Shown one piece after another: positions 8,205 through 32,659 of a stretch of DNA of 64,000 nucleotides (position 1 is the stretch's first letter; each line of letters opens with the position of its first letter). The stretch comes from Nitrospira japonica (lineage in GTDB: Bacteria; Nitrospirota; Thermodesulfovibrionia; Thermodesulfovibrionales; SM23-35), in the NCBI GenBank assembly GCA_020725385.1, contig DYFC01000034.1, forward strand, positions 88,007 through 152,006, read 5' to 3'. The notes beneath the pieces were generated by a model. The model ran no database searches. It saw only the letters and a list, made by a program, of their open reading frames with translations, and was not told where the DNA came from. The position numbers and the translations under genes were made by a program.

Positions 8205-9353
8205 ATGAAAGAACTGACAATTCTTCTTCCATGTCTAAATGAAGCAGAGACAATCGGTCAATGCATTAAAAGAGCAAGGAAACTTCTTGATGATCATGGA
8301 ATTGATGGTGAAATACTTATTTCAGATAATGGTTCAACCGATGGTAGCCAGGCAATATCAAATAAACTTGGTGCCAGGGTAGTTGAATGCCCTATTAGAG
8401 GGTACGGGGCTGCTTTACAATTTGGAATTGAAAGAGCTGAAGGTAAATTTATCTTAATGGGAGACGCTGATGACAGCTATCATTTTGATGAAGCGTTTCC
8501 TATGATTCAAAAACTTAGGGAAGGTTATGATATCTGTATCGGAACACGACTAAAAGGTAAAATAATGAAAAATGCGATGCCGTTTCTCAACAGGTATCTC
8601 GGTACGCCTGTAATAACTAAAATTGGAAAAATATTTTTTAAAGTTGCTCTTAGTGATTACAATTGTGGAATGAGAGCGTTTAGAAGGGATAAGCTTCTTG
8701 AACTGAATCTTGTTACAACCGGCATGGAATGGGCATCCGAGATGATTATTAAGTCTAAACTTGCGGGTCTAAAAATGACGGAAGTTCCTATTACATTATA
8801 TAAAGATGGCAGAAGCAGACCTCCTCATCTCAGACGATGGAGGGATGGCTGGCGTCATATAAGGTTTATGCTTCTTCATTCACCTAAATGGCTTTTTACA
8901 ATTCCCGGGATTGTCATGATAGCAGTTGGTATAACCGGTGAAATTTTATTAATGCCCGGTGTATTTAAAATCGGAAATGTTAATTTTGATGTTCATACTC
9001 TTACTGCTATGGCTATTTTAACTATTGTTGGTACACAGGTAATGTTCACAGGAATTTTTGCAAATTTATATTCACACATTACCGGTATTCTTCCTGAAGA
9101 TGAAAAATATAGAAATTTAATAAAGAAATTTTCATTGGAAAAAGTTCTCGTGTTCTGTTTAATTCTTTTCATTTTTGGATTAACAGGGTTTTTATATACA
9201 TTATGGGAGTGGTATAGGGTAAATTTTTCTGAATTGAATTATCAGGTAACAATGAGACAGCTTGTACCATCGCTTACGCTCATAGCTATTTCAATTCAAG
9301 GAATGTTCAATGGCTTTATGCTATCATTACTTTTTTTAAGAACAAAAAAGTAA
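8205..9353 (+). CDS. GT2 glycosyltransferase (polyprenol-phosphate sugar synthase-like) with C-terminal TM helices
   Basis: LPCLNEA, DNGSTD, GYGAA, DADD motifs; about 4 C-terminal TM segments. Confidence 0.88.
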   Translation: MKELTILLPCLNEAETIGQCIKRARKLLDDHGIDGEILISDNGSTDGSQAISNKLGARVVECPIRGYGAALQFGIERAEGKFILMGDADDSYHFDEAFPMIQKLREGYDICIGTRLKGKIMKNAMPFLNRYLGTPVITKIGKIFFKVALSDYNCGMRAFRRDKLLELNLVTTGMEWASEMIIKSKLAGLKMTEVPITLYKDGRSRPPHLRRWRDGWRHIRFMLLHSPKWLFTIPGIVMIAVGITGEILLMPGVFKIGNVNFDVHTLTAMAILTIVGTQVMFTGIFANLYSHITGILPEDEKYRNLIKKFSLEKVLVFCLILFIFGLTGFLYTLWEWYRVNFSELNYQVTMRQLVPSLTLIAISIQGMFNGFMLSLLFLRTKK

Positions 9354-9380
9354 CATTTTTAATATTGCATATTTTCATTT

Positions 9381-9926
9381 ATGAAAAAGCTTGATTATAT
9401 TTTACAGAATTGGAGATATTCAATGGTTATTTCATTTATTCCATCTGGTTCTGAAATACTTGATATAGGCGGATATGACGGTTCGTTTTTACTAAAAGTA
9501 AAGAATAAAATCAAAAAAGGATATTGTATTGACCCGCTGATTAGTCCATTCAAAGATGATAAACTTGAATTTATAAAAGAACAAGTAAATAACAAATTGC
9601 CCTTTGCAGACTCATCATTTGATGTAATTACAATGATTGCTGTTTTTGAACATTTAAGAAAAAGCAGAACAATTGCAGTTTCTGAAGCATATCGGCTCTT
9701 AAAAAAAGGTGGAATAGCAATACTAACCATACCCGACAAATTTGTTGACAATATATTAAAAATTTTATCTACGCTAAAGCTAATTGATGGCATTTCTATT
9801 GAAGAACATGATAATTATGAAGTATCTGAGACTATTGAAATATTTTCTAAATATGGTTTTACATTACAAAAGTGGCAAAAGTTTCAGCTCGGCTTGAATA
9901 ATCTTTTTATCTTCAAAAAAAAATGA
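9381..9926 (+). CDS. Class I SAM-dependent methyltransferase
   Basis: LDIGGYDG motif I; LPFADSSFDVI; VFEHL. Confidence 0.85.
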   Translation: MKKLDYILQNWRYSMVISFIPSGSEILDIGGYDGSFLLKVKNKIKKGYCIDPLISPFKDDKLEFIKEQVNNKLPFADSSFDVITMIAVFEHLRKSRTIAVSEAYRLLKKGGIAILTIPDKFVDNILKILSTLKLIDGISIEEHDNYEVSETIEIFSKYGFTLQKWQKFQLGLNNLFIFKKK

Positions 9927-9939
9927 GGAGGCAATATTT

Positions 9940-12348
9940 TTGCCAGATAAGTTAAATAAATCTTTTTTTCTTCAATTAATATTCCTTTTTTCTGTTTTTT
10001 TGCTCTCCATTATTAAGATAGAAGACACAGATAGCTGGATGCATCTTAGTTTTGGAAGGCTGATCTGGGAAAATAAAGGGTTACCAGCCACAGAACAATT
10101 TGTATATCCAAGTTTTGGTATGCCTTTTTCTTATAGCTCATGGCTTTTTGGAGTTATATATTATCTTTCATATTTATTTTTAGATATTCCGGGTATTATT
10201 CTTCTCAAGGCTACTACAATAACCTTAGCTTTTTACATAATTTTAAAAGATTCTTTAAGGCCATATAAGAATCTGATTGTATCCCTTCTCATTATGATGT
10301 TAATTGTGATTATCACCCGTCACCGTTTTGCGGAAAGACCCGAAACATTTATGTTGATATTTCTATCCTTCAGTATTTTCAGTTTGAATGCTTATCTATA
10401 CGACAAAAAGAAATATATCTATTGGCTTCCTTTTATCCATATGTTATGGGCAAATTGTCATTCAAGCATAAATATAATGGTGGTTCCATTTTTAGTTTTC
10501 ATTATTGGAGGATTAGCTAATCAATATCTTGATAAAAAAGGTATTAAAGTCGAAATTAGTCCATCTAATGATCAAATTAAGACTATTCTGATTATTTTTG
10601 TTTTGTCATTTCTTTCTTCTTTAATAAGCCCTTATTTTATAAGTCAGTATTTTTTTGCAACCCAGTATCTTTCCGAACCATGGTTTAAACAGGAAATTCT
10701 CGAACTTCAAAGTCCTGAATGGTACATTAAAAAGTGGCTTTATATTGGAACCGGGATTGTAATTGCAAGCTTTGTTTTAAACAGTAAAAAAATATCAATC
10801 ATAAATTTCTTGATGATTATTCCATTTGCATATCTTTCATTTACAGCAAAACGATTTTTACTTCTTTACGCTGTTATTGCTGCTCCTATTGTGATTAAAA
10901 ATATTTCAGCTTTCATCAGAGGAAGGAAATGGGAAAGATTCAATGATAAGAAAATTATGTTGGCCTTTACATTATTGTGGGTAATAGGATTTACATTTTT
11001 AGCAATATTCAAAGGTACCCCGTTTGACGGTAATAGAAAAAAATTCGGATTTGGCGTTGAATATAAGTATGTCCCTGAAGGAGCTCTTAAATATCTTGAT
11101 AAAAATAATATTTATGGAAGAGTTTTTAATATTTTTGAGTGGGGCGGATATATTATCTGGCGGGATTTCCCTAAAAGAATTGTATTTGTTGACCCCCGGG
11201 GGTATCTGCCAGCAGGTCTTCATGAAAAATTAAATCTCGCTATGGGAAGGCCTTATCTTTTAGATGCATTGGAGAATAAATATGGATTTGATGTTGTGCT
11301 TACCGGGTACCCGGAAGTTAGTACAAATGTTGAAAATATTGATTTAGCTTTATTGCATCCTGGGTGGGCTTTAGTATATTGGGATGATAAGGCTCTGGTT
11401 TATTTAAAGAAAGATGGTAAGTATAGGGAAATTGCTAATAGAGATATATATAATTTTGTTAAGCCTGCCAATGGACTGAGCAATCTTAAAAGTATTTTGG
11501 AGGACAAAGAAAATAGAATAAAAACAATCGAGGAATTAAAAAGAAATATAGATAGTACCAATTCTCAAATCGGAAAGATGTTTCTCGGATATTCATATAA
11601 TGAGATTGGAGAATATAACAAAGCTCTGGATATTTTTTCAGAGTTGGAAAAAACTAATTCTTCAGAATATCTTTTGCAGTCATATAGCGGGGTTGCTTTT
11701 GCCTATGAAAGACTTGGAGATTTTAAAAAAGCTATCGAATATAACGAGAAGATAATAGGTTATAAAAAAGAGGCCGGTGTATTTTATGAAATTGGCAGAT
11801 TATATCTAAAATTGAATGATGTGAAGAATTCATTAAAATACCTAAGAAAAGCTTTAGATAAAGATCGTGATTATCTTCCTGTCTACCCTTTAATTTTAGA
11901 TATTTACCGTAAGGAAGGGATGAGTCATGAATACGATAAATTAAAAAAGTACTATGACGAACTTTCTATCAGGAGTACTGCGATGGAACATTTTCAGAGT
12001 GGAGTAAATGCATATTTAAATGGAAAATTTGATGAAGCCCTGGCTGAGTTTAATAAAGCTATTGAATTGAATCCACTGGACGCAAAATCTTACAGCAACA
12101 TAGGTTATATTTATTATGATAGAGGTGATATGATAAACGCTTTTATATACCAGAAAAAAGCAATAGATATAGATCCGAAATTTGCGAATGCTCACTTCGG
12201 GCTGGCTATGATTTATAAAAAACATGGTGATTTTTTAAATGAAAAAAAGCATCTTGAAGAATATCTGAAACTTGAACCTTCGGGTTATTATTCCAGAAGG
12301 GCGATGGAAGAGATTGACATCCTGAATAAATTTTTGAAAAAACGATAA
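9940..12348 (+). CDS. Multi-pass membrane protein (GT-C-like) with C-terminal TPR repeats
   Basis: DSWMHLSFGR early-loop motif, RPE, LWANCH, many TM segments, then TPR repeats; TTG start after GAGGAGG. Confidence 0.7.
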   Translation: MPDKLNKSFFLQLIFLFSVFLLSIIKIEDTDSWMHLSFGRLIWENKGLPATEQFVYPSFGMPFSYSSWLFGVIYYLSYLFLDIPGIILLKATTITLAFYIILKDSLRPYKNLIVSLLIMMLIVIITRHRFAERPETFMLIFLSFSIFSLNAYLYDKKKYIYWLPFIHMLWANCHSSINIMVVPFLVFIIGGLANQYLDKKGIKVEISPSNDQIKTILIIFVLSFLSSLISPYFISQYFFATQYLSEPWFKQEILELQSPEWYIKKWLYIGTGIVIASFVLNSKKISIINFLMIIPFAYLSFTAKRFLLLYAVIAAPIVIKNISAFIRGRKWERFNDKKIMLAFTLLWVIGFTFLAIFKGTPFDGNRKKFGFGVEYKYVPEGALKYLDKNNIYGRVFNIFEWGGYIIWRDFPKRIVFVDPRGYLPAGLHEKLNLAMGRPYLLDALENKYGFDVVLTGYPEVSTNVENIDLALLHPGWALVYWDDKALVYLKKDGKYREIANRDIYNFVKPANGLSNLKSILEDKENRIKTIEELKRNIDSTNSQIGKMFLGYSYNEIGEYNKALDIFSELEKTNSSEYLLQSYSGVAFAYERLGDFKKAIEYNEKIIGYKKEAGVFYEIGRLYLKLNDVKNSLKYLRKALDKDRDYLPVYPLILDIYRKEGMSHEYDKLKKYYDELSIRSTAMEHFQSGVNAYLNGKFDEALAEFNKAIELNPLDAKSYSNIGYIYYDRGDMINAFIYQKKAIDIDPKFANAHFGLAMIYKKHGDFLNEKKHLEEYLKLEPSGYYSRRAMEEIDILNKFLKKR

Positions 12349-12349
12349 A

Positions 12350-12970
12350 ATGTCTTCGGCAGATTTATATATCAATAGTATAGATTTCAAGAAATATTTA
12401 AATGAATCTGAATGCTGTGAATGTGGTTTCTCTTCATGTAATGACTTTTTTGTTGCACTAAAGGATGGAAAGGTTGATATTCAACTATGTAAATTTATTG
12501 ATGGAAATAGGTTGAATGCTTTAGAAGCAATAAAAAAGATTGAAACGATCTGGCCTGAAGTGCCTTTAATAACTTTTCCAAGACCGGCATATACTGGACT
12601 TATAGAGCTCAATAATCCTGATGAAAAATCAATTATTCTTATTACAGGAAATAATGAGTTTACAGAACAGGTTGTGCTAACGGTTCTCGGGACAACTTCA
12701 TGTCCATTTTATGTTCTGTTTGTTGATACCGATGGGAATACAATAGATATGTCCATGATTTACAATACTTTCAATGCTGAGAGGGTATTGGATGCATTAA
12801 GAAAAACAGGGTTACTGAATATATCTACTGGAAAAAATATTGTAATTCCCGGACTTGCACATGGTATAGAAAGCGAAATTAATAAACTTACGGGCTTTAA
12901 TATTAAAACAGGGCCGGTTTGTGTAGCAGAATTGCCGCTTTTTTTAGCGAACATATGGATACCACCATAA
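12350..12970 (+). CDS. Fe-S domain fused to a CFeSP (AcsC/CdhE C-terminal)-like domain
   Basis: CCECGFSSC...C cluster motif; NPDEKSIILITGN, VDTDG, IVIPGLA, GPVC..ELP. Confidence 0.65.
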   Translation: MSSADLYINSIDFKKYLNESECCECGFSSCNDFFVALKDGKVDIQLCKFIDGNRLNALEAIKKIETIWPEVPLITFPRPAYTGLIELNNPDEKSIILITGNNEFTEQVVLTVLGTTSCPFYVLFVDTDGNTIDMSMIYNTFNAERVLDALRKTGLLNISTGKNIVIPGLAHGIESEINKLTGFNIKTGPVCVAELPLFLANIWIPP

Positions 12971-13078
12971 ACTACAATACATTTATGATGAACGAATTTT
13001 TTTAAGCAATGTTTACATTGTTTGGGTTAAAATAATTCAGTCTATACGGACTGTTTAAAAAGCAGAGGGGTGAGTTAA

Positions 13079-14077
13079 ATGGAAAGAATATTATTAGGAC
13101 ATGGAAGCGGTGGAAAGCTTATGTATCAATTGATTAGAGAACATTTTGTTCCTGAGTTTAAGCTCAAGTCTTTGAATGATTCGGCGGTTCTTAAAGGGTT
13201 AAATAAAGGTAAGATTGCTGTTACAACCGATTCTTATGTGGTTTCCCCTATTTTTTTCCCGGGTGGCAATATTGGTGAGCTTGCTGTTTACGGGACAGTA
13301 AATGATCTTTCAATGGTAGGTGCAACACCTCTTTATATTACGTCGGGATTTATACTTGAAGAAGGGTTTCCACTCGAAGATTTAAAGAAAATTTTAACCT
13401 CTATGTCGGAAGCAGCAAAAAAAGCAGGTATAAAAATAGTTGCAGGTGATACTAAAGTTGTAAATAAAGGAAAAGCAGATGGTATCTTTATTAACACATC
13501 AGGCGTTGGAATTGTCGGGGAAAATACGGACATTTCACCATTAAAAGTAAAGCCCGGGGATAGAGTAATCCTAAGCGGTCCAATCGGTAATCATGGTATC
13601 TCGATTATTGCAGAAAGAAATGGTTTAAGGTTTAATCCTCCTGTATTGAGTGATACGGCTCCTTTGAATGTACTTGTTAAGGAAATGTTGAAACACACAA
13701 AGAAAATACACGCAATGCGTGACCCTACCCGCGGAGGACTTGCAACCACTCTCAAAGAAATAGCGAATGATTCAAAATGTTGCATTACTATTTTTGAAGA
13801 ATCAATACCCGTGCCTTCTGGTGTCAGAGGAGCGTGTGAACTTCTCGGACTCGATCCGCTTTATGTGGCTAATGAAGGCATTTTAATTGCAATAGTATCT
13901 GCGGATGTAGCCGATTCACTCGTAAAAAAAATGAGGAAAATATCTGTTGCGCGCGAATCGTGTATAATTGGTGAAGTTACAAAAAATCCTGCAGGTATGG
14001 TACTTCTTAAAACATCTATTGGTGGAACAAGAATGATCGAGATGCTTTCCGGTGACCAATTACCAAGAATATGTTAG
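13079..14077 (+). CDS. hypE: Hydrogenase maturation protein HypE
   Basis: HGSGG, TTDSYVV, GDTKVV, DPTRGG, C-terminal LPRIC. Confidence 0.97.
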   Translation: MERILLGHGSGGKLMYQLIREHFVPEFKLKSLNDSAVLKGLNKGKIAVTTDSYVVSPIFFPGGNIGELAVYGTVNDLSMVGATPLYITSGFILEEGFPLEDLKKILTSMSEAAKKAGIKIVAGDTKVVNKGKADGIFINTSGVGIVGENTDISPLKVKPGDRVILSGPIGNHGISIIAERNGLRFNPPVLSDTAPLNVLVKEMLKHTKKIHAMRDPTRGGLATTLKEIANDSKCCITIFEESIPVPSGVRGACELLGLDPLYVANEGILIAIVSADVADSLVKKMRKISVARESCIIGEVTKNPAGMVLLKTSIGGTRMIEMLSGDQLPRIC

Positions 14078-14086
14078 AGGTATAAT

Positions 14087-14797
14087 ATGATATTAGGTGT
14101 TAATATTGATCATATTGCTACATTAAGACAGGCACGTCGTGGAATTGAGCCTGACCCAATTTTGGCTGCCCCGCTTGCTATATTGGGTGGTGCTGATGGC
14201 ATTACAGTTCATCTTAGGGAAGATCGAAGACATATTCAGGACAGGGATCTTGAAATATTGAAAAGAATTGTTCCTGTTGAATTAAATCTCGAAATGGCTG
14301 TTACAGAAGAAATGCTCTTAATCGCAGAAAAAATAAAACCTGATCTTGTAACCATTGTGCCGGAAAAAAGAATGGAACTTACAACCGAAGGCGGATTGGA
14401 TGTAAAAAAACATAAAAAAAATGTAATGGAAGCAATCAAAAGACTTCATAGAAAAGATATACCTGTTAGCCTTTTTATAAATCCGGATAAAGGGGATATA
14501 GAATTATCTGGGAAAATTGGTTCCGATATGGTTGAGATTCATACCGGGACATATGCAAATACAAAGGGAAAAAGTCAGGAAAAAGAGTTCGCAAGAGTGA
14601 AAAATGCGGTTAATTATGCATTAGAATGCAGGCTTTTAGTTAATGCAGGTCACGGATTAAATTACTTTAATGTTCAAAGAATTGCTTTGATTGAAGGTTT
14701 AAGGGGGCTTTATATAGGCCATAGCATTATATCAAGAGCAGTTTTTGTAGGGCTTGAACGGGCTGTTAGAGAAATGAAACAAATTATTCACAGATAA
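14087..14797 (+). CDS. pdxJ: Pyridoxine 5'-phosphate synthase
   Basis: LGVNIDHIATLRQAR, HLREDRRHIQ, NAGHGL. Confidence 0.97.
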   Translation: MILGVNIDHIATLRQARRGIEPDPILAAPLAILGGADGITVHLREDRRHIQDRDLEILKRIVPVELNLEMAVTEEMLLIAEKIKPDLVTIVPEKRMELTTEGGLDVKKHKKNVMEAIKRLHRKDIPVSLFINPDKGDIELSGKIGSDMVEIHTGTYANTKGKSQEKEFARVKNAVNYALECRLLVNAGHGLNYFNVQRIALIEGLRGLYIGHSIISRAVFVGLERAVREMKQIIHR

Positions 14798-14800
14798 CTT

Positions 14801-15934
14801 CTATTTTTTTGTTTTTACTTTGTTAGTTTTTTGTTCGGAAGGACTTGGTATTGATTTTGGATATGTCTCCGGGTTATGGTCTTTATCATGGCAGTTAAGA
14901 TAACATTGTCCTGCACCGGGGCCAAAAGATATATATAAAAGTTTACCACTGGATGAGGGTCTTATATTCAAAGAGTTTTCAAAATCTATCAGGTGCTGAA
15001 ACCGCTTGCTTCCGTGAGGGTTGTGACAATTTCTACAGGAAACACCGATGTTCGATATATGCTGGTTATGATAGGTAAAGCTTTCATTATTTAAAATGCT
15101 ATCTCTTCTGTGACAACTATAACATAGTTCATATTGTTGAATGCTCTCGGGTCTATCATCTGAAGAAAAGTTTTTAGAAAGTAAATTTTTATATCTTGAA
15201 CCATGAGGGCCTTTCGGGCCCAAAGGATCATCATTTCCATGACAATTGGTACATTTTATCTGGGTAGAATAAGAAAGAGGAATGATAAGACTTGGCACAA
15301 AACTGTTCTTACCCGGACCTATAACAGGATGATAGGAAGGGTTTGAAATATTGAAAAGTTCTGCTTTATTAGTCTGGTATGAAGGCAAGTTTGCACTATA
15401 TGAATGGCAGTTGAAACACAATTCATATTCATTGGTTATGCCCACTTTTGACCTCTGAGCAGAAGTCCCTTTTATACCAATGAAAGGATTGTCTTTTGAG
15501 ACAAAATGATGGTGATGACAATCTCCGCACTCAACGTGTCTTGGCTTTGATGAATCTATCTCCGGCAATATTTCATCATTAGTATGTATCCCGGTTTTTT
15601 CAACCGGATGTCTGTAAGGTTTTTCAAATTCTTTTTTCAGGTTTTTTGATGTGAAGCTCCTGGAAACTATCCCGTTATTTTTTGCTTTTTCTGTTGAGCT
15701 TTCGTCACCGTGACAGATAAAGCAAAAATTATTTTTTGTATCCGGAAGCATAGCTGTGCCAGGTCTTCCATGACCTACATGGCAGCTTGCACACCCTTTT
15801 GGCACTTTTGTTTTATCAAAATGGGTTATATCGATATTTTTAGAATAGCACCTTGAAAACAAACTGAGAATAAATATAGACCCTATTGTAAAAAAGAAAA
15901 AAACTATAAATATTATTTTTTTTAATACGGCCAT
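14801..15934 (-). CDS. Multiheme c-type cytochrome (7 CxxCH plus 1 CxxxCH)
   Basis: CASCH, CFICH, CGDCH, CFNCH, CTNCH, CYSCH, CRNCH, CYLNCH; N-terminal hydrophobic segment; likely start MAVLKK. Confidence 0.88.
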   Translation of the reverse strand: MAVLKKIIFIVFFFFTIGSIFILSLFSRCYSKNIDITHFDKTKVPKGCASCHVGHGRPGTAMLPDTKNNFCFICHGDESSTEKAKNNGIVSRSFTSKNLKKEFEKPYRHPVEKTGIHTNDEILPEIDSSKPRHVECGDCHHHHFVSKDNPFIGIKGTSAQRSKVGITNEYELCFNCHSYSANLPSYQTNKAELFNISNPSYHPVIGPGKNSFVPSLIIPLSYSTQIKCTNCHGNDDPLGPKGPHGSRYKNLLSKNFSSDDRPESIQQYELCYSCHRRDSILNNESFTYHNQHISNIGVSCRNCHNPHGSKRFQHLIDFENSLNIRPSSSGKLLYISFGPGAGQCYLNCHDKDHNPETYPKSIPSPSEQKTNKVKTKK

Positions 15935-16746
15935 ATCTTGTATGATTCCCCGCAATCATTATAGTGACAGACAAAACAAACATCGTTATATGAAGTTCCC
16001 TGCCAGAATGGGGGCCATTTTACCCCGTTGTTTTCTTCCAACGACCTATTGGTATGAGGATTATGGCAGGAAGTACATTGAACCCCCATGCCTCCACCCT
16101 GATTTTCAGTAGGATACAATTTAACAGGAGAGGTTCTATTGGATGGCGGTGGATTTAGCCAGCAGCTATTCGTAATATTGCTATTATTTCTTTTTGATAC
16201 AAGTGAATTATCGTAAACAATTGAAATCGGATGGCCACCGGAAAGATCAGTGCCGATATAACCGCTGCAACCTGAACCGGGAATAAGTTTTCCAGAGGCA
16301 TCAATGCAGTTGCTAATATTCATTAATATTTCTTCCCATCTGCTATTTACCGAACCAACGGCTACTGTTCCATCATGACAACTGAGACAGAGTTTTGAAA
16401 ATCCGTCAATTTTCCATGCCTGACTTTCAGCTTCGGTATATGATTGCAATGTGTTACTCCAATAAACTTTATATGTTTGTACAGCAGATAGTTCATGATT
16501 CCAGAGAGGCTGAACAGGATTTGCATTATGTGGTGTATGGCAAAAAATACATATCTCCGGCTCATAAACTGCTTTTACAGTATTGCTTGGAGAAGGCCAT
16601 CTGCTCAATGAACCTGAAAGATTGTGTTTTGTATAAACTATGCTGGTCTGGGGTGGATCTTTTGCCTGAACCAGTGCAGATAAAAATGTTACACTGATTA
16701 AAATAACAGATACCATGAATTTTATTATTTTGCTTATACTTGACAT
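15922..16746 (-). CDS. Tetraheme cytochrome c, OmcE-like
   Basis: Signal peptide; TKHNLS, ICIFCHTPHNA..PLWN, CLSCHDG, GTDLS..HP, CTSCH, CFVCH match the recalled Geobacter OmcE motif order. Confidence 0.8.
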   Translation of the reverse strand: MSSISKIIKFMVSVILISVTFLSALVQAKDPPQTSIVYTKHNLSGSLSRWPSPSNTVKAVYEPEICIFCHTPHNANPVQPLWNHELSAVQTYKVYWSNTLQSYTEAESQAWKIDGFSKLCLSCHDGTVAVGSVNSRWEEILMNISNCIDASGKLIPGSGCSGYIGTDLSGGHPISIVYDNSLVSKRNNSNITNSCWLNPPPSNRTSPVKLYPTENQGGGMGVQCTSCHNPHTNRSLEENNGVKWPPFWQGTSYNDVCFVCHYNDCGESYKIWPY

Positions 16747-16752
16747 ATTTTA

Positions 16753-17802
16753 TTATTCCTTATTTTTGAGATATTTAAAAACCTGAATTCTATGATTATA
16801 TGAATCAGCCACATAGATAAAATCATCATTATCAATGAAAATACCGGCAGGTAATATCATCTCTCCGTTTCCGGTTCCTGTTTTCCCGAACACCAGCAGG
16901 AGTCTGCCTTCCTTATCAAATATCTGGACATTATCAAAATTCGAATCTGAAACATATATATGTCCTTCAGAATCTACAGCAACTCCTTTCGGTCTGGAAA
17001 GGTCTCCGGAGCCATCGCCTGCTTTTCCAAACATTGAAAGAAAGTTACCATCTTTATCAAAAATCTGTATCCTGAAATTTAAAGAGTCTGTGATATATAA
17101 AATTTCCTGTTTATCTATAAAAATATTCGTAGGATAATTGAATTCACCTTTTTGGTTTCCCTGATTACCAAAACTGAATAAGAATTCACCTTTTTTATTA
17201 AATACTAACACACGGTGGGAGTGAGTATCAATTACATAAATTCTATCACTGGTTAAAGCAATGCCCGATGGTCTCAAAAATAGATTAGATGAGCCTATTT
17301 CATACTTAAATTTGCCATTTCTATCAAAAACAAAAACTTTTTTAAGTGATGAATCTGTCACATAAATTTTTCCATCTTCATCAACAGCAATGCCTATAGG
17401 TGATTGTAATTCTGCTTGACCAGCATCTTTAATAAGAAAATATTTGCCATTTGAATCATAAACATGAACTATGTGCGCTCCGGGATCTGTAATATACAAA
17501 TTTCTATTAAATGCATATATCCCATGCGGTCTAATCATAGTGCCATAGAATTGTTCTTTGCCGAAGAAGATTTCAATTGTCTGTTCTACCCATGATTTGT
17601 TTATGCCAAAATCCGATGGGGTATAGATACATGTTAGGAATTTAATTTTAGGAATCTGGGGGTAGGGTGGCCATACCAATGTTGATTCTCGGGAATCAAT
17701 GTTATTATATATAATATTTTTTGAATTACTACAGGAAATTATTAAAAAAAAGATTAATATTATTGAAAGGTTAACTTTGCCTTTAAATATATTTTCTTTC
17801 AT
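16753..17802 (-). CDS. NHL-repeat 6-bladed beta-propeller lipoprotein
   Basis: Lipobox LIISC; repeated PxGIAVD..G.IYVxD..NxRIQIF; likely start MKENIF. Confidence 0.88.
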   Translation of the reverse strand: MKENIFKGKVNLSIILIFFLIISCSNSKNIIYNNIDSRESTLVWPPYPQIPKIKFLTCIYTPSDFGINKSWVEQTIEIFFGKEQFYGTMIRPHGIYAFNRNLYITDPGAHIVHVYDSNGKYFLIKDAGQAELQSPIGIAVDEDGKIYVTDSSLKKVFVFDRNGKFKYEIGSSNLFLRPSGIALTSDRIYVIDTHSHRVLVFNKKGEFLFSFGNQGNQKGEFNYPTNIFIDKQEILYITDSLNFRIQIFDKDGNFLSMFGKAGDGSGDLSRPKGVAVDSEGHIYVSDSNFDNVQIFDKEGRLLLVFGKTGTGNGEMILPAGIFIDNDDFIYVADSYNHRIQVFKYLKNKE

Positions 17803-17806
17803 AATA

Positions 17807-19906
17807 TTAAAAAGTTCTTGATGCTTTAAGATTAAAACGTCTTGTTTCACTTATAGCATATCCTTCATCCAGTTTTGTTGAAGTCAACTCAAGTGAGAAA
17901 AACATCTGTCTCCATGTGTAATACAAATCAAATTCATAATCTCTTGTTCTTGTATCTGTATAGAATTCTCTATTTGTTGTAAGAATGCCGGTATTCCACC
18001 ATCCTTTGCTCCTGAATTCCTCTCTCCACCATGCTGTAAAATTAAGTCCTCTGAAGAAAGTATAATTAAACCTTCCTTCATAATTGTATTTTCTTATATC
18101 CTGTGAATTGGTCTGACCTGTTGTGTAACTTCCGCTTAATATTATTGAGCCTCTTTTTAAGATTGGATATCTAAAATGGCATGATGCAGTATAGTGTCTT
18201 ATTTTCTTTGCATTCTGGCTTTCACCCAGCCATACAGATTCAAAGGAATTTAATTTATTGCCCGAGGAATCCATAAAACGGGCTTCTAATTCAACAGACC
18301 ATGAAGCTTTCCAGGGGCCTCTTACATGGGAGCCTAACCGGGCTTTATGTTCAACTGTGGAAGAATTATCTCCTAAGTCGGATTCGGTTTCATAAGGGGA
18401 ATTGAAAGAATATTTAAAAGTCCTGTAACTGAATCTATAGCCGGCAAATATCTTGCCCCATTTATATTTTCTTGTTGACAGGTTTAAATCCAGACTATTT
18501 TCCATGAAACTTAAATCATTGCTATTTTTTTCCTGAGAAAGAATAAAGTTATACAACGCATTAAAGTCATATATTTTGTAAGGTTTGCCGTAGTTGAAGG
18601 TAGTGTCAAGTTTATATGCGTAACGATCATCATCATTAACTGTTCCATATTGAATGCGCATATTAGCTCTCGCAAATATTCTGTTGGAAATTCTATAACG
18701 CCAGATGCCCGCAAGGGTATATCTGTCCGAAGTTTGCTCACCGGATTTTGAAGATGTAAATTCAAAATTATAATCATGGTAGATATTTTTTAATGGCTGG
18801 GGTTTATAATCAGCAGAAAAACTAATAAGTCTGGATGTATCGATTTTATAATATTGAAATGCAGTCCATAGAGAATTGCCTTTATTAAACTGGGTTTTTG
18901 TATTTAAGGTTATTCTGGTTGAACTGAAATCTCTATTGGGATATGAATATTTGGATAATGAATAAACGAGAAAATATTTTGTTTTGATTGCATTCCAGTT
19001 GCCGCTTAAGGTGGTGTCCAGTTTATCAATACTGAATTTATATTCAACTTTTTCTTTTATAATGTCGAAACCTCCCAGAAATTCATCATAGGCTCTCTTA
19101 CCGGTCATCCTATCGGTTGAATAGTCCCAGTGTGAATATTCTATGCGAATATTAGGAAATTTTTTTAAGGTTGAATAGAATCTGGCGCCGTAAAAATTTG
19201 ATACAGAATCCCCGTCAAAGACTGTAACACCATCCATTTTGTTGTATGAACGTGTAGCAAAAACATCAAGCGAGACAGGCCTTGTTGGCAGAAATGTAGT
19301 TGATAATGTGTATGAAATATCCCTTGCATTCCAGGTCGAATCATCGGCTGCTTTATATTTAGTTTTACTGTTGTTAAATGTGATTTCGGCAAAATAGTTA
19401 AGTAGTTTTGGGTGGTAAATGAAACCATTTGCTCTTAGTCTGAATTTTTGCTCGAATGTTTGTGAAGAAGATTTGAATTTATTCCCCATATATTTAGTTT
19501 CGGTATTATAATCTTTATAGTTAAGCTCGATCAGTCCGCTAAAACGTAAAGAGTATCTTGCCTTAACCGGGCTACCGTATAATTGGGTATATGAAAGAGC
19601 CCCTGCAGTTGAAGCGCTTTCACCACCGGATTTAGACATGGATTTTGACATTGATTTGGACATGGATGACATGGATGACATTGATGACATGGACGACATG
19701 GATGACATGGATGACATGGATGACATTGATGACATAGCTAATGAAAATTCAGATGAGGTCAAGACAAATATAAAACATAGAGAAAAAGAGAGAAGAATGA
19801 AACGAAAGAATCTACTTAATAAAAAATTTGATATTAGATGCCATAAAGTGATGCAAATCAATAAAATGGAAAAATAGACTGGCTTTTTGAGTTCTATTAT
19901 TGTCAT
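17807..19906 (-). CDS. Outer-membrane beta-barrel protein (porin-like) with N-terminal Met/Ser repeat
   Basis: Hydrophobic N-terminal leader, alternating aromatic/polar strands, C-terminal Phe (KASRTF); lies within the cytochrome operon. Confidence 0.75.
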   Translation of the reverse strand: MTIIELKKPVYFSILLICITLWHLISNFLLSRFFRFILLSFSLCFIFVLTSSEFSLAMSSMSSMSSMSSMSSMSSMSSMSSMSKSMSKSMSKSGGESASTAGALSYTQLYGSPVKARYSLRFSGLIELNYKDYNTETKYMGNKFKSSSQTFEQKFRLRANGFIYHPKLLNYFAEITFNNSKTKYKAADDSTWNARDISYTLSTTFLPTRPVSLDVFATRSYNKMDGVTVFDGDSVSNFYGARFYSTLKKFPNIRIEYSHWDYSTDRMTGKRAYDEFLGGFDIIKEKVEYKFSIDKLDTTLSGNWNAIKTKYFLVYSLSKYSYPNRDFSSTRITLNTKTQFNKGNSLWTAFQYYKIDTSRLISFSADYKPQPLKNIYHDYNFEFTSSKSGEQTSDRYTLAGIWRYRISNRIFARANMRIQYGTVNDDDRYAYKLDTTFNYGKPYKIYDFNALYNFILSQEKNSNDLSFMENSLDLNLSTRKYKWGKIFAGYRFSYRTFKYSFNSPYETESDLGDNSSTVEHKARLGSHVRGPWKASWSVELEARFMDSSGNKLNSFESVWLGESQNAKKIRHYTASCHFRYPILKRGSIILSGSYTTGQTNSQDIRKYNYEGRFNYTFFRGLNFTAWWREEFRSKGWWNTGILTTNREFYTDTRTRDYEFDLYYTWRQMFFSLELTSTKLDEGYAISETRRFNLKASRTF
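19628..19735 (-). repeat. Coding tandem repeat: 8 x 9-nt (MSS) plus 3 x 12-nt (MSKS)
   Basis: (gatgacatg)n on the + strand; 11 Met codons. Confidence 0.95.
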
Positions 19907-19955
19907 GCATAGAAATCATTATTTAAAGTTGTCATAATTTATAAATAAATGCTTT

Positions 19956-21020
19956 TTATTTTTTTTCTTTAAGATATTGAAAAACCTGAACACGTCTATT
20001 AAAAGTATCCGATATATAAATAATGTCTTTATTATCAATGAACATTCCCGATGGGAGAGAAAATTCCCCAGGCTTGGTTCCGCCCTGTCCTACCCATAAT
20101 AGAAGTTTTCCCGTGTCATTGAATATCTGGAAATTGTTAAAAGCTGTATCAACAACATAGATATGTCCGTCAGAGTCAATCCCGATTCCGGCAGGTCTTG
20201 AGAAATTTCCTGATGTATCACCAAGTCTGCCAAATTTTCTAATAAATCTTCCTTCTGAATCGAAAATCTGAACTCTGAAATTAAATGAATCGACTACATA
20301 TAAATAACCTTTTTTATCAACCGCAAGGTAACTTGGAAAATTGAATTCCCCGTTATCATTACCTTTTTTCCCGATAGTTGCAATGGATTTTCCTGTATCG
20401 TCGAATACTCTTACTACATGATTTTTTGTGTCTGAAACATATAGTTTGTTATTAATTTCATCATAAGCTAACCCTGAAGGATTCTTAAGCATCCCTATGC
20501 TTCCAATATCGATCAGGACTCTTCCTGAATTTTTATCAATCCCGAAAACTTTGTCTATTCTTGAATCGGATACAAAAATAATTCCTTTTTTATTATTAAT
20601 GGCGAGTCCGATTGGAGCTGAGACAACTCCTTCACCAAGAAAGCGAAGTCTGCCCTGTTCCTGATCAAAAACGAAGATAACACCGTGCTCGGAGTCAGCG
20701 ACATATACATTACCTGCATTATCGGCAACAACACCATTCGGTCTTCTCAGTCGAATGCCTCTTTCTTCGCCAACAAGTATATTGAGAACCTTACTCGGTC
20801 TTCCAAAATCATATTTATGAAACCATTGTCTTACCCATTTAATTCGTGGTTGTTCTGGTGGAGAAGGCCATACATATTCAGAAAAATCCTGGTCAGAAAT
20901 TTCTGTCGAAGTTGTTGCACATCCTGTAAAGATTATATTTAATAGTAGTAGAATGATTATTATTTCCGGGAAAAACCTATTATTTTTGAAAGGATTTTTA
21001 CACTTTAGTATTTGTGGCAT
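19956..21020 (-). CDS. NHL-repeat beta-propeller lipoprotein, paralog of 16753-17802
   Basis: Lipobox IFTGC; VWPSPPEQPRIK; six NHL blades. Confidence 0.88.
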   Translation of the reverse strand: MPQILKCKNPFKNNRFFPEIIIILLLLNIIFTGCATTSTEISDQDFSEYVWPSPPEQPRIKWVRQWFHKYDFGRPSKVLNILVGEERGIRLRRPNGVVADNAGNVYVADSEHGVIFVFDQEQGRLRFLGEGVVSAPIGLAINNKKGIIFVSDSRIDKVFGIDKNSGRVLIDIGSIGMLKNPSGLAYDEINNKLYVSDTKNHVVRVFDDTGKSIATIGKKGNDNGEFNFPSYLAVDKKGYLYVVDSFNFRVQIFDSEGRFIRKFGRLGDTSGNFSRPAGIGIDSDGHIYVVDTAFNNFQIFNDTGKLLLWVGQGGTKPGEFSLPSGMFIDNKDIIYISDTFNRRVQVFQYLKEKK

Positions 21021-21790
21021 TTAAGGCATATCCTTTGTACTGGAAATAACTTGGAATAGTCTGAACTATGAGGGTTATGACAGCTAACACAGCTTAAATC
21101 TTTTCCCGGTACCTTCGGGTCAGGCATTTCAATTTGTCTTTTTGGATTGACAGGATCGGGTACTTTAATTATTTTTAAGGTGCTTATGTCTTTTACATCT
21201 TTTATCGGATGAATTTTCCCGCCGGGCAAAGCAACAATATGAATTCCCGATGATTGAGCTTTATGACACGTTGTACATAGGTCATTTATTGGATTTGGAA
21301 GCAAAGAAGGGTTATTGCTTGCATGGGGGTTATGGCATGTGCTGCAACCTATTACATTTATTACCTTATGAGTATATTTTTTTTCGAACTTGTTTTTATC
21401 ATGGCAACTGAAACATAATTCTCTATTTGTAAGTTTCAGGAGTTTTTCATTGTTTGAACTATGTGGATTATGGCATCCTGTGCACATTCCCTTTGAAACC
21501 GGTGGATGAATAGTTTTACCTTTAAGTTTTGTTTCATCATGGCAGTTATAGCAAAGCCCCGGCATAGTTTGAACAAGGATTATGCTTCCTTTCTCGGGAT
21601 GATTCTTACCGGGCATTGACTTATGACATGCTTCGCAGCCCATTGTTATGGGATTATGAATGTATTTTGCTTCCTTTAAATTTGCATGGCACATAAGGCA
21701 GGGATTTGCTTCTTGTGAAAATGAAGTATTTATAAGTGAAAAAAATAAAAATAAAACATGAAAAGTAAGAATAGAAATAAATTTTTTCAT
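21005..21790 (-). CDS. Periplasmic nonaheme cytochrome c (doubled CxxCH, MtrA/DmsE-like)
   Basis: Signal peptide; 9 CxxCH with CxxCHxPH(S/A)S repeats. Confidence 0.88.
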   Translation of the reverse strand: MKKFISILTFHVLFLFFSLINTSFSQEANPCLMCHANLKEAKYIHNPITMGCEACHKSMPGKNHPEKGSIILVQTMPGLCYNCHDETKLKGKTIHPPVSKGMCTGCHNPHSSNNEKLLKLTNRELCFSCHDKNKFEKKYTHKVINVIGCSTCHNPHASNNPSLLPNPINDLCTTCHKAQSSGIHIVALPGGKIHPIKDVKDISTLKIIKVPDPVNPKRQIEMPDPKVPGKDLSCVSCHNPHSSDYSKLFPVQRICLKCHKY

Positions 21791-21967
21791 CAGGTTTATT
21801 TTTTTCCTTATTTAGATGATATTTTAATTAAATTAAATTTTATTTTTTAACAATTTATTTTAACTTTAGATATTGTCTTTGTCAATAAAATTTGTTGTTA
21901 ATTCAGTAATTTCATAAAGTTTTCATAATCTTTTTAAAATAGAATTTTTAGGGAGTAATATTATCAT

Positions 21968-22001
21968 AAAAAAAGCCCCGGAAAAATTCACCGGGGCTTT
22001 T
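21968..22001 (-). terminator. Rho-independent terminator after the dodecaheme pair
   Basis: aaaaagccccgg-loop-ccggggctttt. Confidence 0.85.
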
Positions 22002-22016
22002 GTATAAGTAAACAAA

Positions 22017-22952
22017 TTATTTGCTTATTGATTTTGAAGGAAGATCATGTGCGCCAACATGGCAATCGGCACAATTCGGGAACTTCTTAAGTAAAGCTTC
22101 TCCATGTGGTTTACTATGACAATCTTCACATTTAGGTATAAATCTGTGTTTTGTATGGCAGCTTGCACAGGTTAATGTAGAATGTTTGCTTGCGTTTGCT
22201 TTTAATTTTCCATAAACAACGCCGTGGCAGGAACCACAAATATCATTGGCTGTTGATATTGGATAACTTATCTTTAATGGCGAATGTGCAGGATGACAGG
22301 CAAGACATTCTTTTACGGTCAAAGTCGAAGTGTGTGGCTTATGGCATTCCATACATGACGGGATATATCCATGTTTGTCATGATGGCAAGAAGAGCATGC
22401 AACATTTGTGTGCTTACTGACATTTGTTTTTATTTCCTGTCCGACTTTTGTATGGCAATCGCCACAAACTTTGGACATTTCAGCACTCATGGTCATCTGT
22501 GTTTTTGGAGCATGAGGATTGGAATGACATGTGGCACATGCTGCAAATTTTTCTCCATGAATCAAACCATGACATGTTTTACACTGGGGCATGATCTCAT
22601 TCCAGTTCTGTTTTATCGGATTATATTGATGGAATTTGGTATGGCATTTCTGGCAATCAAATTTGTGTTTTCCGCCCTCGGCCTTAATTTCATTAAATAC
22701 TCCAGGGTGACAACGGGCACAGTCAGCAGGTGTTAAGGGTGAAATTTCCATTTCATAAATGTCTTTTGGTTTGGGCGCAGGTTTTGGTGGTTCAACCACA
22801 GGCTGTTGAGCAGGTACCTGTGTTGCTGCGGCAACTTGCTGTGGTGATTGCTGGGCAGGTGGTGGAGCTACCGGAGCTGCTGCACATGCAATTATTACAA
22901 GCAATAAAAGCAAGGTACAGCCGGTTAGTAAAACTATCTTTTTTTGTTTCAT
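22017..22952 (-). CDS. Dodecaheme cytochrome c lipoprotein
   Basis: 12 CxxCH; lipobox IIAC then a Pro/Ala/Gln linker; ATG 22952 overlaps the upstream TAA (TAATG). Confidence 0.88.
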   Translation of the reverse strand: MKQKKIVLLTGCTLLLLLVIIACAAAPVAPPPAQQSPQQVAAATQVPAQQPVVEPPKPAPKPKDIYEMEISPLTPADCARCHPGVFNEIKAEGGKHKFDCQKCHTKFHQYNPIKQNWNEIMPQCKTCHGLIHGEKFAACATCHSNPHAPKTQMTMSAEMSKVCGDCHTKVGQEIKTNVSKHTNVACSSCHHDKHGYIPSCMECHKPHTSTLTVKECLACHPAHSPLKISYPISTANDICGSCHGVVYGKLKANASKHSTLTCASCHTKHRFIPKCEDCHSKPHGEALLKKFPNCADCHVGAHDLPSKSISK

Positions 22953-23776
22953 TATTTTGAAGCCTCCTTTCCTAAACTGTGTGCACTTGTATGGCACATA
23001 TTACATTTCGGGAATTTTGCAACCATTCCTGCAGGATGGGGTGAACCATGACAATTTTCACAAGCCGGCACATTCCTATGTTTGTCTTTATGGCAATAAA
23101 CACAGGCAAGTTTTGCATGTTTTGTGTCAGTACCGGTTAAAGTATCGTAAATATTCTTATGACAGGATGCACAGGTTTTTGAAGGCATATCGGCACCATA
23201 AGTAATAGTCAAAGGTTGATGGGCTGGATGACAGACCTGACAATCTTTTTCTGTCATATCAGAGGAATGGGGACGGTGACATTGCATACAAGGTGGAATC
23301 TGCTTATGAGCTTTATGGCATGTTGTGCAGAAAAATTTTGAATGCTTGGTCTGATGTGTTTTCATTTCTTCACCCTGTTTTTCATGACAGGAAAGACACG
23401 GTGCTGTAAGATTTGCAGCAAGTTTCATATCAACAGGTGCATGGGGATTTGAGTGACATGTTTTACAGTTACCAATTTCATAATGTTTTTTGCCTGCATG
23501 ACATGCACTGCAGACAGGGATTATTTTGTCTTTACTGACCATTGGAGGATGCCCCTTATGGCAGTCGAGGCAGGAGACAGCAGTTTTGTGTTTATTACCC
23601 TTTGCATCAACTATCTCCTGTACAGCTTTGTGACATTTCACACAGTCATCGTTTGATAATTGTGCTGCAGCAAGGCTTTCAGAATGAATTCCTGCTATAA
23701 ATAGTACAGTGATTATGAGGACGAATAATGGCAGGAAAACATCAAATCTTTTCCTGAAACCATGAATCAGGTTCAT
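22952..23776 (-). CDS. Periplasmic dodecaheme cytochrome c
   Basis: 12 CxxCH; signal peptide ending ESLA; same heme spacing as the downstream paralog. Confidence 0.88.
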   Translation of the reverse strand: MNLIHGFRKRFDVFLPLFVLIITVLFIAGIHSESLAAAQLSNDDCVKCHKAVQEIVDAKGNKHKTAVSCLDCHKGHPPMVSKDKIIPVCSACHAGKKHYEIGNCKTCHSNPHAPVDMKLAANLTAPCLSCHEKQGEEMKTHQTKHSKFFCTTCHKAHKQIPPCMQCHRPHSSDMTEKDCQVCHPAHQPLTITYGADMPSKTCASCHKNIYDTLTGTDTKHAKLACVYCHKDKHRNVPACENCHGSPHPAGMVAKFPKCNMCHTSAHSLGKEASK

Positions 23777-23926
23777 TTTACAACCCCCTTTTTAAAAATT
23801 TATACAATATTGTTTGCCTGTAAATTATATTTTAGCTAACTAATTCTTTTATGATGAATAGTATTAAAGCCAGCATACACTTATACCATCTTTTTTAATT
23901 ATCTGTCAAGGAAAAAATTACAGAAA

Positions 23927-24955
23927 TTAGTACCAGATAACAGTGCCATCTTTTGATTTTACAGGCACTTTTCTTAAAGGCAGATGTTTTTCCCAGATAT
24001 GTTTATTTTCAATATACCATTGGATTGTATTTTTGAGTCCATCTTCAAATTTGGTCAAAGGTGTAAATCCAAATATATCATTTGCTTTTTTATAAGTTGC
24101 AATATGTTTTTGGACCTGTCCGAATCTATCAGGAATATAGTCAAAACGGGTTTCATCGAGATTAAATATTTTAATAACTTTTCTGGCAATTTGAAGAATA
24201 CTTAATGATTCGCCTGTGCCGATATTGAAAACTTCACCTTTAACCTTTTCTATAGGTGCATGAAGCACAAGGTCAATGGCATTAGAAGTATCTGAAGCAT
24301 GTACCCAGTCTCTTTCTGCAGAACCATCACCATGAATAGTAAGTTTTTCGCCGAGTATGCAACTTGTGATAAAGCGTGGTACTACTTTTTCAAGATGTTG
24401 TTTCGGGCCATAATTATTGAAAGGTCTTAAGATAACAGCAGGTATATCATAGGCAATTATATAAGAAGACACAAGTCTGTCGGCTCCGGCTTTTGCAGCA
24501 GCGTAAGGGCTGGTAGGATTTAGTGGATGATCTTCATCCATGGGTTCATAAATAGCAGTGCCATAAACTTCGGAAGTGGATATATGAATAAACCGCTCTA
24601 TTTTTTCGGCATATTTCACAACAGCATTTACGACCGATTGTGTGCCAAGTACATCTGTTATGAAGAATTCTCTATGGGAGTAAAGAGAGCGTGCAACATG
24701 AGTTTCTGCTGCAAAATGAACAATTATATCGGACTTTTTAACAAGGTCGCTGACGAGGTCTAAATTATTGACATCACCGTACCAGAACTCAAATCTTTCC
24801 GATTCTCTGATTTCCCTGCTTATGTTTTCAATGTCTCCAGCATAGGTAAGGTAATCAAGGACAATAATTTTGTAATTGGAATATTTATTGTAAATATGTT
24901 CTATGAAGTTACTTCCTATAAATCCGGCTCCACCTGTAACTAATAAAGTCTTCAT
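23927..24955 (-). CDS. rfbB: dTDP-glucose 4,6-dehydratase
   Basis: LVTGGAGFIGSNF, LTYAG, HFAAETHV, PYAAAK; likely start MKTLLV. Confidence 0.85.
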   Translation of the reverse strand: MKTLLVTGGAGFIGSNFIEHIYNKYSNYKIIVLDYLTYAGDIENISREIRESERFEFWYGDVNNLDLVSDLVKKSDIIVHFAAETHVARSLYSHREFFITDVLGTQSVVNAVVKYAEKIERFIHISTSEVYGTAIYEPMDEDHPLNPTSPYAAAKAGADRLVSSYIIAYDIPAVILRPFNNYGPKQHLEKVVPRFITSCILGEKLTIHGDGSAERDWVHASDTSNAIDLVLHAPIEKVKGEVFNIGTGESLSILQIARKVIKIFNLDETRFDYIPDRFGQVQKHIATYKKANDIFGFTPLTKFEDGLKNTIQWYIENKHIWEKHLPLRKVPVKSKDGTVIWY

Positions 24956-31335: not shown

Positions 31336-31337
31336 TA

Positions 31338-32375: not shown

Positions 32376-32380
32376 AGATG

Positions 32381-32416
32381 GTTGTCATTTAAGTTGTCAT
32401 TTAGGTTGTCGATTAT
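32381..32416. repeat. Three 12-nt direct repeats (gttgtcatttaa-type)
   Basis: gttgtcatttaa / gttgtcatttag / gttgtcgattat immediately after the Fic stop. Confidence 0.8.
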
Positions 32417-32631: not shown

Positions 32632-32659
32632 GTATGGGCACGTTTCAACGTGCCCATAT
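32632..32659. repeat. REP-like palindrome
   Basis: gtatgggcacgtt-tc-aacgtgcccatat. Confidence 0.85.

Follow-up and report, generated by a model that had tools for sequence, protein, structure and literature searches.

A conserved omcE/uet-type cytochrome gene cluster with a putatively split undecahaem in a Thermodesulfovibrionales bacterium

A run of six genes encoding three multihaem cytochromes, two NHL β-propeller proteins and a large predicted outer-membrane barrel lies on the minus strand of a 64,000-nucleotide stretch of contig DYFC01000034.1 (positions 88,007 to 152,006; assembly GCA_020725385.1, deposited as Nitrospira japonica), which was analysed as a whole and is referred to here as the window. 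In the order of transcription the genes are c261, nhl354, omp699, nhl365, g274 and g384 (Table 1). The run is tightly coupled, because successive genes are spaced by −16, +49, −44, +6 and −34 bases, the 44-base overlap being that of the omp699 and nhl365 genes; a gap of 226 bases separates c261 from two upstream 12-haem genes, c326 and c274b, on the same strand. A preliminary description of this DNA had reported the six open reading frames (ORFs) as a coupled minus-strand run that included a nonahaem cytochrome, a tetrahaem cytochrome and two NHL lipoproteins, and the ORF coordinates, the spacing, the CXXCH counts and the propeller scores all agree with it. The product that it called an octahaem, g384, has eight haem motifs only when a CX4CH is counted alongside its seven CXXCH; by CXXCH alone the name does not hold.

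Table 1. Positions in the window of the six-gene run, the two upstream cytochrome genes and two sequence features.
Feature	Position	Strand	Length	Description
c261	21005-21790	-	261 aa	9 CXXCH; secreted; MtrA/DmsE-like; proposed barrel-threading cytochrome
nhl354	19956-21020	-	354 aa	NHL β-propeller (Pfam PF01436, 111.5 bits); 6-bladed propeller families; lipobox-like N-terminus (..FTGC)
omp699	17807-19906	-	699 aa	Large predicted outer-membrane β-barrel; 28 strands in model
nhl365	16753-17850	-	365 aa	Second NHL β-propeller lipoprotein (PF01436, 127.2 bits); lipobox-like N-terminus (..LIISC)
g274	15922-16746	-	274 aa	4 CXXCH; OmcE-family tetrahaem; putative counterpart of the N-terminal module of UetJ-type undecahaems
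g384	14801-15955	-	384 aa	7 CXXCH and one CX4CH (residue 351); own hydrophobic N-terminus; putative counterpart of the C-terminal module of UetJ-type undecahaems
c326	22017-22997	-		12 CXXCH; c7/c3-type Pfam domains; lipobox-like N-terminus; Pro/Ala/Gln-rich linker
c274b	22952-23776	-		12 CXXCH; cytochrome c3/c7 domains
In-frame tandem repeat in omp699	19628-19735	-		9 bp x 8.6, then 12 bp x 3.3 (Tandem Repeats Finder)
Sigma-70-like promoter candidate	21857-21885	-		TTGACA-17-TAAAAT; 11/12 consensus positions; in the 226-base gap upstream of c261

The tetrahaem g274 matches the OmcE filament subunit of Geobacter sulfurreducens (PDB 7tfs_A; E 2.2e-21, 79.8 bits, residues 17-234) and, at E 2.2e-10, chain N of the 16-chain PDB entry 9yuq (9yuq_N), which is probably the OmcE bundle of D. 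soudanensis WTL described in PMC13712944. Its family is large, with 3145 proteins at E<=0.001 among 3392 candidates; four CXXCH motifs are present in 119 of the 120 best relatives, and nine histidines are invariant in a 76-row alignment of the family. An AlphaFold2 (AF2) model of g274, calculated without haems, was poor (predicted local distance difference test score, pLDDT, 67.1), and 7tfs was its sole Foldseek match at E<=0.001. The closest structural counterpart of c261 by sequence is chain A of the Mtr complex (6r2q_A; E 8.8e-21). With these matches, and with no CXXCK motif found when motifs were counted in the cluster cytochromes, the proteins do not group with periplasmic enzymes unrelated to extracellular electron transfer.

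No Pfam or NCBIfam model matches omp699, and by sequence it finds no PDB chain at E<=10. The database gene call for this protein is 614 aa, beginning at residue 86 of the ORF, and the matches of its relatives start near residue 110 and extend to the C-terminal Phe; the true start probably lies inside the ORF. Of the 78 representative relatives returned by an exhaustive phmmer search, 59 reach E<=1e-10. For the conserved 614-aa part, modelled by AF2 with 46 relatives, the result has a mean pLDDT of 88.0, a predicted template modelling score (pTM) of 0.72 and 28 β-strands. Foldseek returned 249 PDB matches to the model at E<=0.001; the matches listed are all outer-membrane barrels (TonB-dependent receptors, ushers, LptD, SlpA and MtrB), MtrB (6r2q_B) having the highest TM-score of those listed (0.42/0.40). 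All 50 matches listed by VIA-align are membrane β-barrels (Z 13.6-16.8). The protein thus models as a barrel, in line with the preliminary description. Directly after the predicted signal peptide, the tandem repeat of omp699 encodes (MSS)n(MSKS)n; this could be a linker of variable length, the open frame being 702 aa here and 704 aa in a genome of the same genus (G782).

The lipobox-like cysteines of nhl354 and nhl365 were read by eye from the translations. In nhl365 this residue (Cys40) is invariant, and a W-P-P motif follows it, across 28 relatives. A longer consensus, V-W-P-P-P-P-x-x-P-R-I-x-Y, lies directly behind the lipobox Cys of the NHL lipoproteins, those of Geobacter-type loci included (loci L002-L081, L119 and L137), and may be a docking segment.

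For comparison with Geobacter we used a G. sulfurreducens-like locus (L137). There a PpcA-like triheme gene precedes genes for two cytochromes, the first with 9 haems and the second with 8; an NHL gene and the OmcE gene follow, and the last in the row encodes a protein of 755 aa with a C-terminal Phe. The N-terminus of this OmcE is consistent with the alignment to 7tfs. Between g274 and the same OmcE the identity is 29% (BLASTP, E 2e-27), and the alignment pairs all four CXXCH motifs and four further histidines (H41, H73, H172 and H231), each of which is invariant in the 76 relatives. c261 is 28% identical to the 9-haem cytochrome (E 9e-30), and the NHL genes score 187-198 bits against the NHL gene. 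A hidden Markov model (HMM) of the omp699 family gives no match to the L137 barrel even at E<=1, whereas profile-profile comparison with the barrel of Geobacter-type omcE loci (hhalign) gives a probability of 97.5% and E 7e-12 over 468 columns. The remaining cytochrome, g384, has no match listed in L137 and no clear counterpart in Geobacter-type loci, reaching only 27-28 bits against the 9-haem cytochromes of two of them (L119 and L122). Judged by these alignments, four of the six genes (tetrahaem, 9-haem cytochrome, NHL and barrel) are demonstrably homologous to genes of the G. sulfurreducens-like omcE locus, and the link to that locus drawn in the preliminary description stands.

A recent survey (Petersen et al., mBio 2026, PMC13712944) places OmcE-type tetrahaems with such neighbours in five phyla, Nitrospirota among them, and gives for the omcE cluster of Desulfuromonadia the parts list seen here: two multihaem cytochromes, two β-propeller lipoproteins, an OmcE-family tetrahaem and a large barrel. 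The two types differ in gene order, which in L137 is 9-haem cytochrome, 8-haem cytochrome, NHL, OmcE, barrel (with a second NHL gene after OmcE in L119) and here is 9-haem cytochrome, NHL, barrel, NHL, tetrahaem, 8-haem cytochrome. They differ also in the second cytochrome, which is c261-like in Geobacter-type loci whereas here it is g384. The solved filament of PDB 7TFS is that of the G. sulfurreducens OmcE; for the Nitrospirota clade described here a filament is conjectural. The omcE/uet-type conduit is a kind already in print (Uet in 2022, Occ in 2020, and mBio in 2026 with Nitrospirota), and a 2026 preprint describes syntenic clusters of porins and OmcE-like cytochromes in Acidobacteriota and Verrucomicrobiota; the present operon is one more such case outside Geobacter, not the first.

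The identity of g384 becomes clearer when it is read together with g274. Both align to a single 568-aa protein with 11 CXXCH motifs, g274 to residues 22-218 and g384 to residues 226-551, each at 45% identity. We examined 80 loci, the best matches to a profile of g274 relatives among 596 confirmed matches. At least one NHL gene is present in 78 of them, and the barrel is recognised by HMM in 38. A fused form, that is, a single protein of 535-900 aa with about 11 CXXCH, an OmcE-like N-terminal part and a g384-like C-terminal part, occurs in 57; the two parts are split between adjacent genes in 16, ten of these in Nitrospirota, and seven loci have neither arrangement. The CX4CH near the C-terminus is retained in five of six fused proteins examined; therefore these ‘undecahaems’ may bind a twelfth haem. 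A separate, free tetrahaem stands at the head of the cluster in 38 of the 57 fused loci and in 7 of the 16 split loci, and in none of the six closest relatives of the present cluster (L002-L007).

Trees were calculated from 159 rows, from 160 rows including the G. sulfurreducens-like OmcE and from a careful set of 64 rows. All three place the free tetrahaems, including all Geobacter-type ones, on one side, and the N-terminal modules of undecahaems together with the split forms, g274 included, on the other. The length of the C-terminal tail is one small independent character that separates the two types: the last CXXCH is followed by 8-13 residues in seven g274-type proteins but by 2 in the G. 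sulfurreducens-like OmcE and in 52 of the 62 free tetrahaems of B-type. Scored on 7tfs, a profile of free tetrahaems reaches 177.7 bits, compared with 130.3 bits for the profile of g274 relatives. We hold g274 and g384 to be probably the two parts of a split undecahaem, mainly on their collinearity with the fused proteins and on gene position, with the trees as weaker support. Both g274 and the N-terminal third of the widespread UetJ/OccP-type undecahaem outer cytochromes belong to the OmcE family. That OmcE is thereby connected with part of the UetJ-type undecahaems is, in our view, the most useful yield of the analysis; a single literature search, within a limited searchable library, found no paper that names UetJ together with OmcE.

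Taken together, these results make it likely that we are dealing with a lineage-specific variant of the omcE/uet type of cytochrome conduit across the outer membrane, in which the undecahaem is split, in a sulfate-reducing bacterium of the Thermodesulfovibrionales. Several observations weigh against this assignment. The counts of fused and split loci are biased towards the g274-type clade, given that the loci were selected with a g274 profile. The deep branch between undecahaem modules and free OmcE is weak (ultrafast bootstrap, UFboot, 10; Shimodaira-Hasegawa-like approximate likelihood ratio test, SH-aLRT, 80.5), and an approximately unbiased (AU) test, run on 64 rows that were sampled randomly within groups, the long-branch row L011_22_678 being left out, does not reject joining the tetrahaems of the window's type to the free OmcE type (log-likelihood difference, delta lnL, 11.3; p 0.348). 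Scores of single sequences on 7tfs fail to separate the clades, being 131.3 bits for a Geobacter-type free OmcE, 128.1 for a fused N-terminal module and 79.8 for g274. c261 falls below the curated cut-off of TIGR03508 (DmsE family; 108.5 vs 192.2 bits), and on sequence is best regarded as related to the MtrA/DmsE family but not a member by the curated model. Finally, no outer decahaem of the MtrC/OmcA type is recognised among the cluster proteins, all matches to PF22113 and TIGR03507 being sub-threshold.

The same phylogenetic evidence bears on whether g274 is itself the subunit of a nanowire. On that account the genes would form a true OmcE-type operon, in which g274 polymerises into micrometre-long insulated haem filaments, exported through or mounted on the barrel with help from the NHL proteins, and g384 and c261 only charge the filament. 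The alignment of all four CXXCH and four further histidines with the G. sulfurreducens-like OmcE, the nine histidines invariant in 76 relatives and the unique Foldseek match to 7tfs all fit such a filament, as does the agreement of the six-gene parts list with the minimal omcE cluster of PMC13712944. g274 is moreover a separate gene with its own signal peptide, so that its product would be free to polymerise, and the AU test leaves orthology with free OmcE possible. Against this, the best trees group g274 with the N-terminal modules of 11-haem fusions, and a fused subunit differs from the solved filament architecture, in which, according to a review (PMC12954529), one haem is ligated by a His of the neighbouring subunit. 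The tail of 8-13 residues after the last haem motif contrasts with the two residues of the filament type, the score of g274 against 7tfs is lower than that of the other tested members of either clade, and its haem-free model is poor. We consider a nanowire operon doubtful, and the ‘nanowire’ of the preliminary description is not upheld as written, with the proviso that the alternative placement was not rejected. The existence of fused and split forms of one protein also calls for caution against reading every OmcE-like tetrahaem beside a barrel and an NHL gene as a nanowire subunit.

The conduit that we favour has another close parallel in the uet cluster of ‘Ca. Tenderia electrophaga’ (Tenderiales), for which the source (bioRxiv 10.1101/2022.05.06.490989) lists a tetrahaem UetA, a predicted 28-strand barrel UetC, two NHL proteins (UetH and UetI) and an extracellular undecahaem UetJ. 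The likeness lies in a barrel of 28 strands, where omp699 and UetC are likened by strand count, in the two NHL proteins and in an 11-CXXCH cytochrome as the last gene. UetJ is one polypeptide, whereas here two adjacent genes carry four and seven CXXCH (with one CX4CH) and are collinear with fused proteins of 535-812 aa. A free tetrahaem of the UetA kind, the prolyl isomerase UetB, the triheme c7 cytochromes UetD, UetE and UetG and the cupredoxin UetF have no counterpart in positions 14801-23776, their place being taken by the MtrA-like 9-haem cytochrome. Among the 80 loci, L020, L036, L043 and L065 combine an 11-haem gene with two NHL genes and with genes for 3-haem proteins.

Three other systems share parts or design with the cluster. 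The occ cluster of ‘Ca. Dechloromonas occultata’, published in 2020 (bioRxiv 10.1101/695007), is likened by its description: it is cytochrome-rich, contains an NHL protein and an extracellular undecahaem, OccP, and has been proposed to act in extracellular electron transfer. It differs in being a 19-gene cluster, with an OccP of 922 aa. MtrCAB of Shewanella (PDB 6R2Q) is alike in design, a cytochrome sitting inside a large barrel, but MtrA is a decahaem whereas c261 has nine haem motifs, and MtrB has 26 strands (a figure taken from bioRxiv 10.1101/2022.05.06.490989) compared with 28 in the omp699 model. The MtrC homologue is missing here, with sub-threshold matches only, and NHL lipoproteins are present. 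The osc (OmcS companion) operon of G. sulfurreducens, in which OscE, OscF and OscG have been proposed to serve secretion and OscH folding (Shen et al. 2025, as cited in PMC13194489), is alike in concept and by description, a cytochrome subunit being encoded with proteins proposed for its secretion, by a porin-like pathway, and for its folding. Its subunit, the hexahaem OmcS, belongs to another family than g274.

The analysis establishes that the parts are homologous to known ones, that omp699 models as a barrel, that g274 and g384 are collinear with fused proteins and that the block is conserved. The topology, binding partners and direction of electron flow that we infer for the conduit would be as follows. 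Periplasmic multihaem cytochromes, probably c326 and c274b, would exchange electrons with the MtrA-like c261, which may be placed in or at the 28-strand barrel omp699. The partner on the outer face would be the UetJ-type undecahaem split in two, namely the OmcE-like tetrahaem module g274, for which polymerisation is likewise conjectural, and the 7+1-haem module g384, which carries a separate export signal. Both NHL lipoproteins may act as scaffolds or assembly factors for the complex of barrel and cytochromes. The upstream genes are probably periplasmic relays: c274b matches, weakly, the small tetrahaem CctA in the PDB (E 1.6e-4), the same pair of 12-haem genes lies upstream of the cluster in one related locus (L006), and a homologue of c274b (275 bits) is found near a uet-type cluster in another (L124). 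The c326 protein has a Pro/Ala/Gln-rich stretch of about 50 residues after the lipobox and resembles a membrane-tethered cytochrome on a flexible linker. No inner-membrane quinol-oxidising partner lies within the cluster, and the ‘complete secretion, assembly and charging module’ of the preliminary description is conjectural, as are the uses it suggested, metal reduction and direct interspecies electron transfer. As a whole, that description is sound in its omcE link, its barrel and its host unlike Geobacter, and not, as written, in the nanowire and the complete module.

The same machine could also run inwards, as an uptake conduit whose electrons, drawn from a syntrophic partner or from minerals, cathodes or metallic iron, would feed sulfate or sulfite reduction, as has been proposed for Uet. 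Extracellular electron uptake is the role described for the uet cluster, which has parts of the same kinds (bioRxiv 10.1101/2022.05.06.490989), and clusters of NHL proteins and cytochromes in D. ferrophilus, likened by description, have been proposed for uptake (PMC5815863). The genome encodes a DsrA that scores over its cut-off beside a DsrB-like neighbour, and the hydrogenase-maturation genes, Rnf and Wood-Ljungdahl-type RACo protein of the window point to an anaerobe with a soluble terminal acceptor. The sequence, however, cannot tell direction; the Occ undecahaem is expressed during Mn(III) reduction according to bioRxiv 10.1101/695007, which implies outward flow, and Geobacter OmcE is outward too. 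Outward flow and an inward uptake that serves sulfate reduction are equally plausible, and as a reading of the whole cluster we regard the latter as a real, if still tentative, possibility. Functional caution is needed for either direction, since OmcE is reported (PMC13194489) to be dispensable for current production and Fe(III) oxide reduction in G. sulfurreducens, and deletions of NHL-associated cytochrome clusters in D. ferrophilus, again likened by description, left Fe(III) oxide reduction unimpaired.

It is very improbable that the genes have no part in extracellular electron transfer and encode instead a respiratory enzyme or redox module of the periplasm, such as a nitrite or sulfur-compound reductase with its accessory proteins. 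g384 lies near an ESM Atlas cluster automatically named ‘putative nitrite reductase’, and there are weak, sub-threshold matches to models of the NrfB/NrfH type. Set against these are the lack of CXXCK in any cluster cytochrome, a separate NrfA/NrfH pair elsewhere in the genome, the embedding of a 28-strand outer-membrane barrel and two lipoprotein propellers in the operon, and the specific matches, which point to the Mtr complex and to the filament of OmcE.

A broader and, in our estimation, improbable extension of the favoured conduit would treat omcE and uet/occ as one machine family. The OmcE-like module of the outer conduit cytochrome would then serve OmcE-type subunits as a base or nucleus for stacking, and fission of the undecahaem in this Nitrospirota lineage would have freed g274 as a filament subunit, with g384 staying as an adaptor docked to the barrel. 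If true, this would explain, in a way open to testing, what anchors cytochrome nanowires to the cell and how the cell charges them.

The host is, by its gene content and closest relatives, a sulfate-reducing bacterium of the Thermodesulfovibrionales. The closest named relatives of g274, the barrel and the housekeeping protein Tgt (up to 88% identity) come from metagenome-assembled genomes of Nitrospirota/Thermodesulfovibrionales, and GC content is about 35%, so that the low-GC organism unlike Geobacter of the preliminary description is confirmed by placement. The assembly comprises 2.46 Mb in 71 contigs, is 96.6% complete and contains 27 ORFs with at least three CXXCH; its DsrA scores 590 bits, and the DsrB-like gene adjoins it. 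Besides the cluster, the 64-kb window holds the hyp (hydrogenase-maturation) genes already mentioned and haem-synthesis genes.

Across the phylum, matches to the barrel profile at E<=1e-20 were found in 27 of 301 sampled genomes, the present genome included. The barrel occurs in six of seven other genomes of the host's family (500-710 bits), and most other families of the order are without it among the genomes searched (0/23, 0/11 and 0/8 in families f3, f6 and f7). The order of the six-gene block is the same in the Nitrospirota loci L002-L007. An OmcE-like match was found in 38 of 301 genomes of a Desulfobacterota sample and in 75 of 201 genomes in the class of a Geobacter-type genome. Thermodesulfovibrionales are common in subsurface and hot-spring samples, and because of this the cluster, a compact and well-conserved example of the omcE/uet-type conduit, makes extracellular electron exchange worth considering in their ecology.

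The sigma-70-like site upstream of c261 is the top-scoring one of the scanned region. It is a consensus match only, in a region with 51 such sites compared with 46.6 in shuffled sequences. A scan for the sigma-54 consensus gave 38 sites against 24 expected, none of them within the intergenic gaps upstream of c261 or c274b, and control by RpoN is accordingly not claimed.

A search with g274 as the query had returned a single OmcE-like gene in the genome, a statement that we have dropped, as the B-type profile found a second on contig C6. This gene (C6:27819-28586, equivalent to L148:8820-9587, minus strand) encodes a very divergent OmcE-family tetrahaem of 255 aa with four CXXCH, scoring 95 bits against the free-OmcE profile and 20.3 bits against 7tfs. 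The gene is at one end of the contig, next to that of a PMT_2 (GT39-like) glycosyltransferase, and the assembly stops before its upstream neighbours. On contig C45, at about 9500-24700 (L138:3542-18717), a second cytochrome cluster encodes proteins with 7, 6, 16 and 26 CXXCH. Behind them come a PpiC-type prolyl isomerase, lipoproteins, a protein of 816 aa that no Pfam model matches and a YncE-like propeller. The cluster may represent a further module for electron transfer in the envelope.

Within the window, positions 8205-12348 on the plus strand, about 2.5 kb from the cluster, carry genes for a family-2 glycosyltransferase, a methyltransferase and an 802-aa multi-pass membrane protein with C-terminal tetratricopeptide (TPR) repeats. 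Glycosyltransferase, methyltransferase and TPR genes are attached to many omcE clusters according to PMC13712944. Further along, at 29569-38810, the type I restriction-modification genes HsdM, HsdS and HsdR are interleaved with genes for a Fic-domain protein and a protein of the 23S-rRNA-intervening-sequence type.

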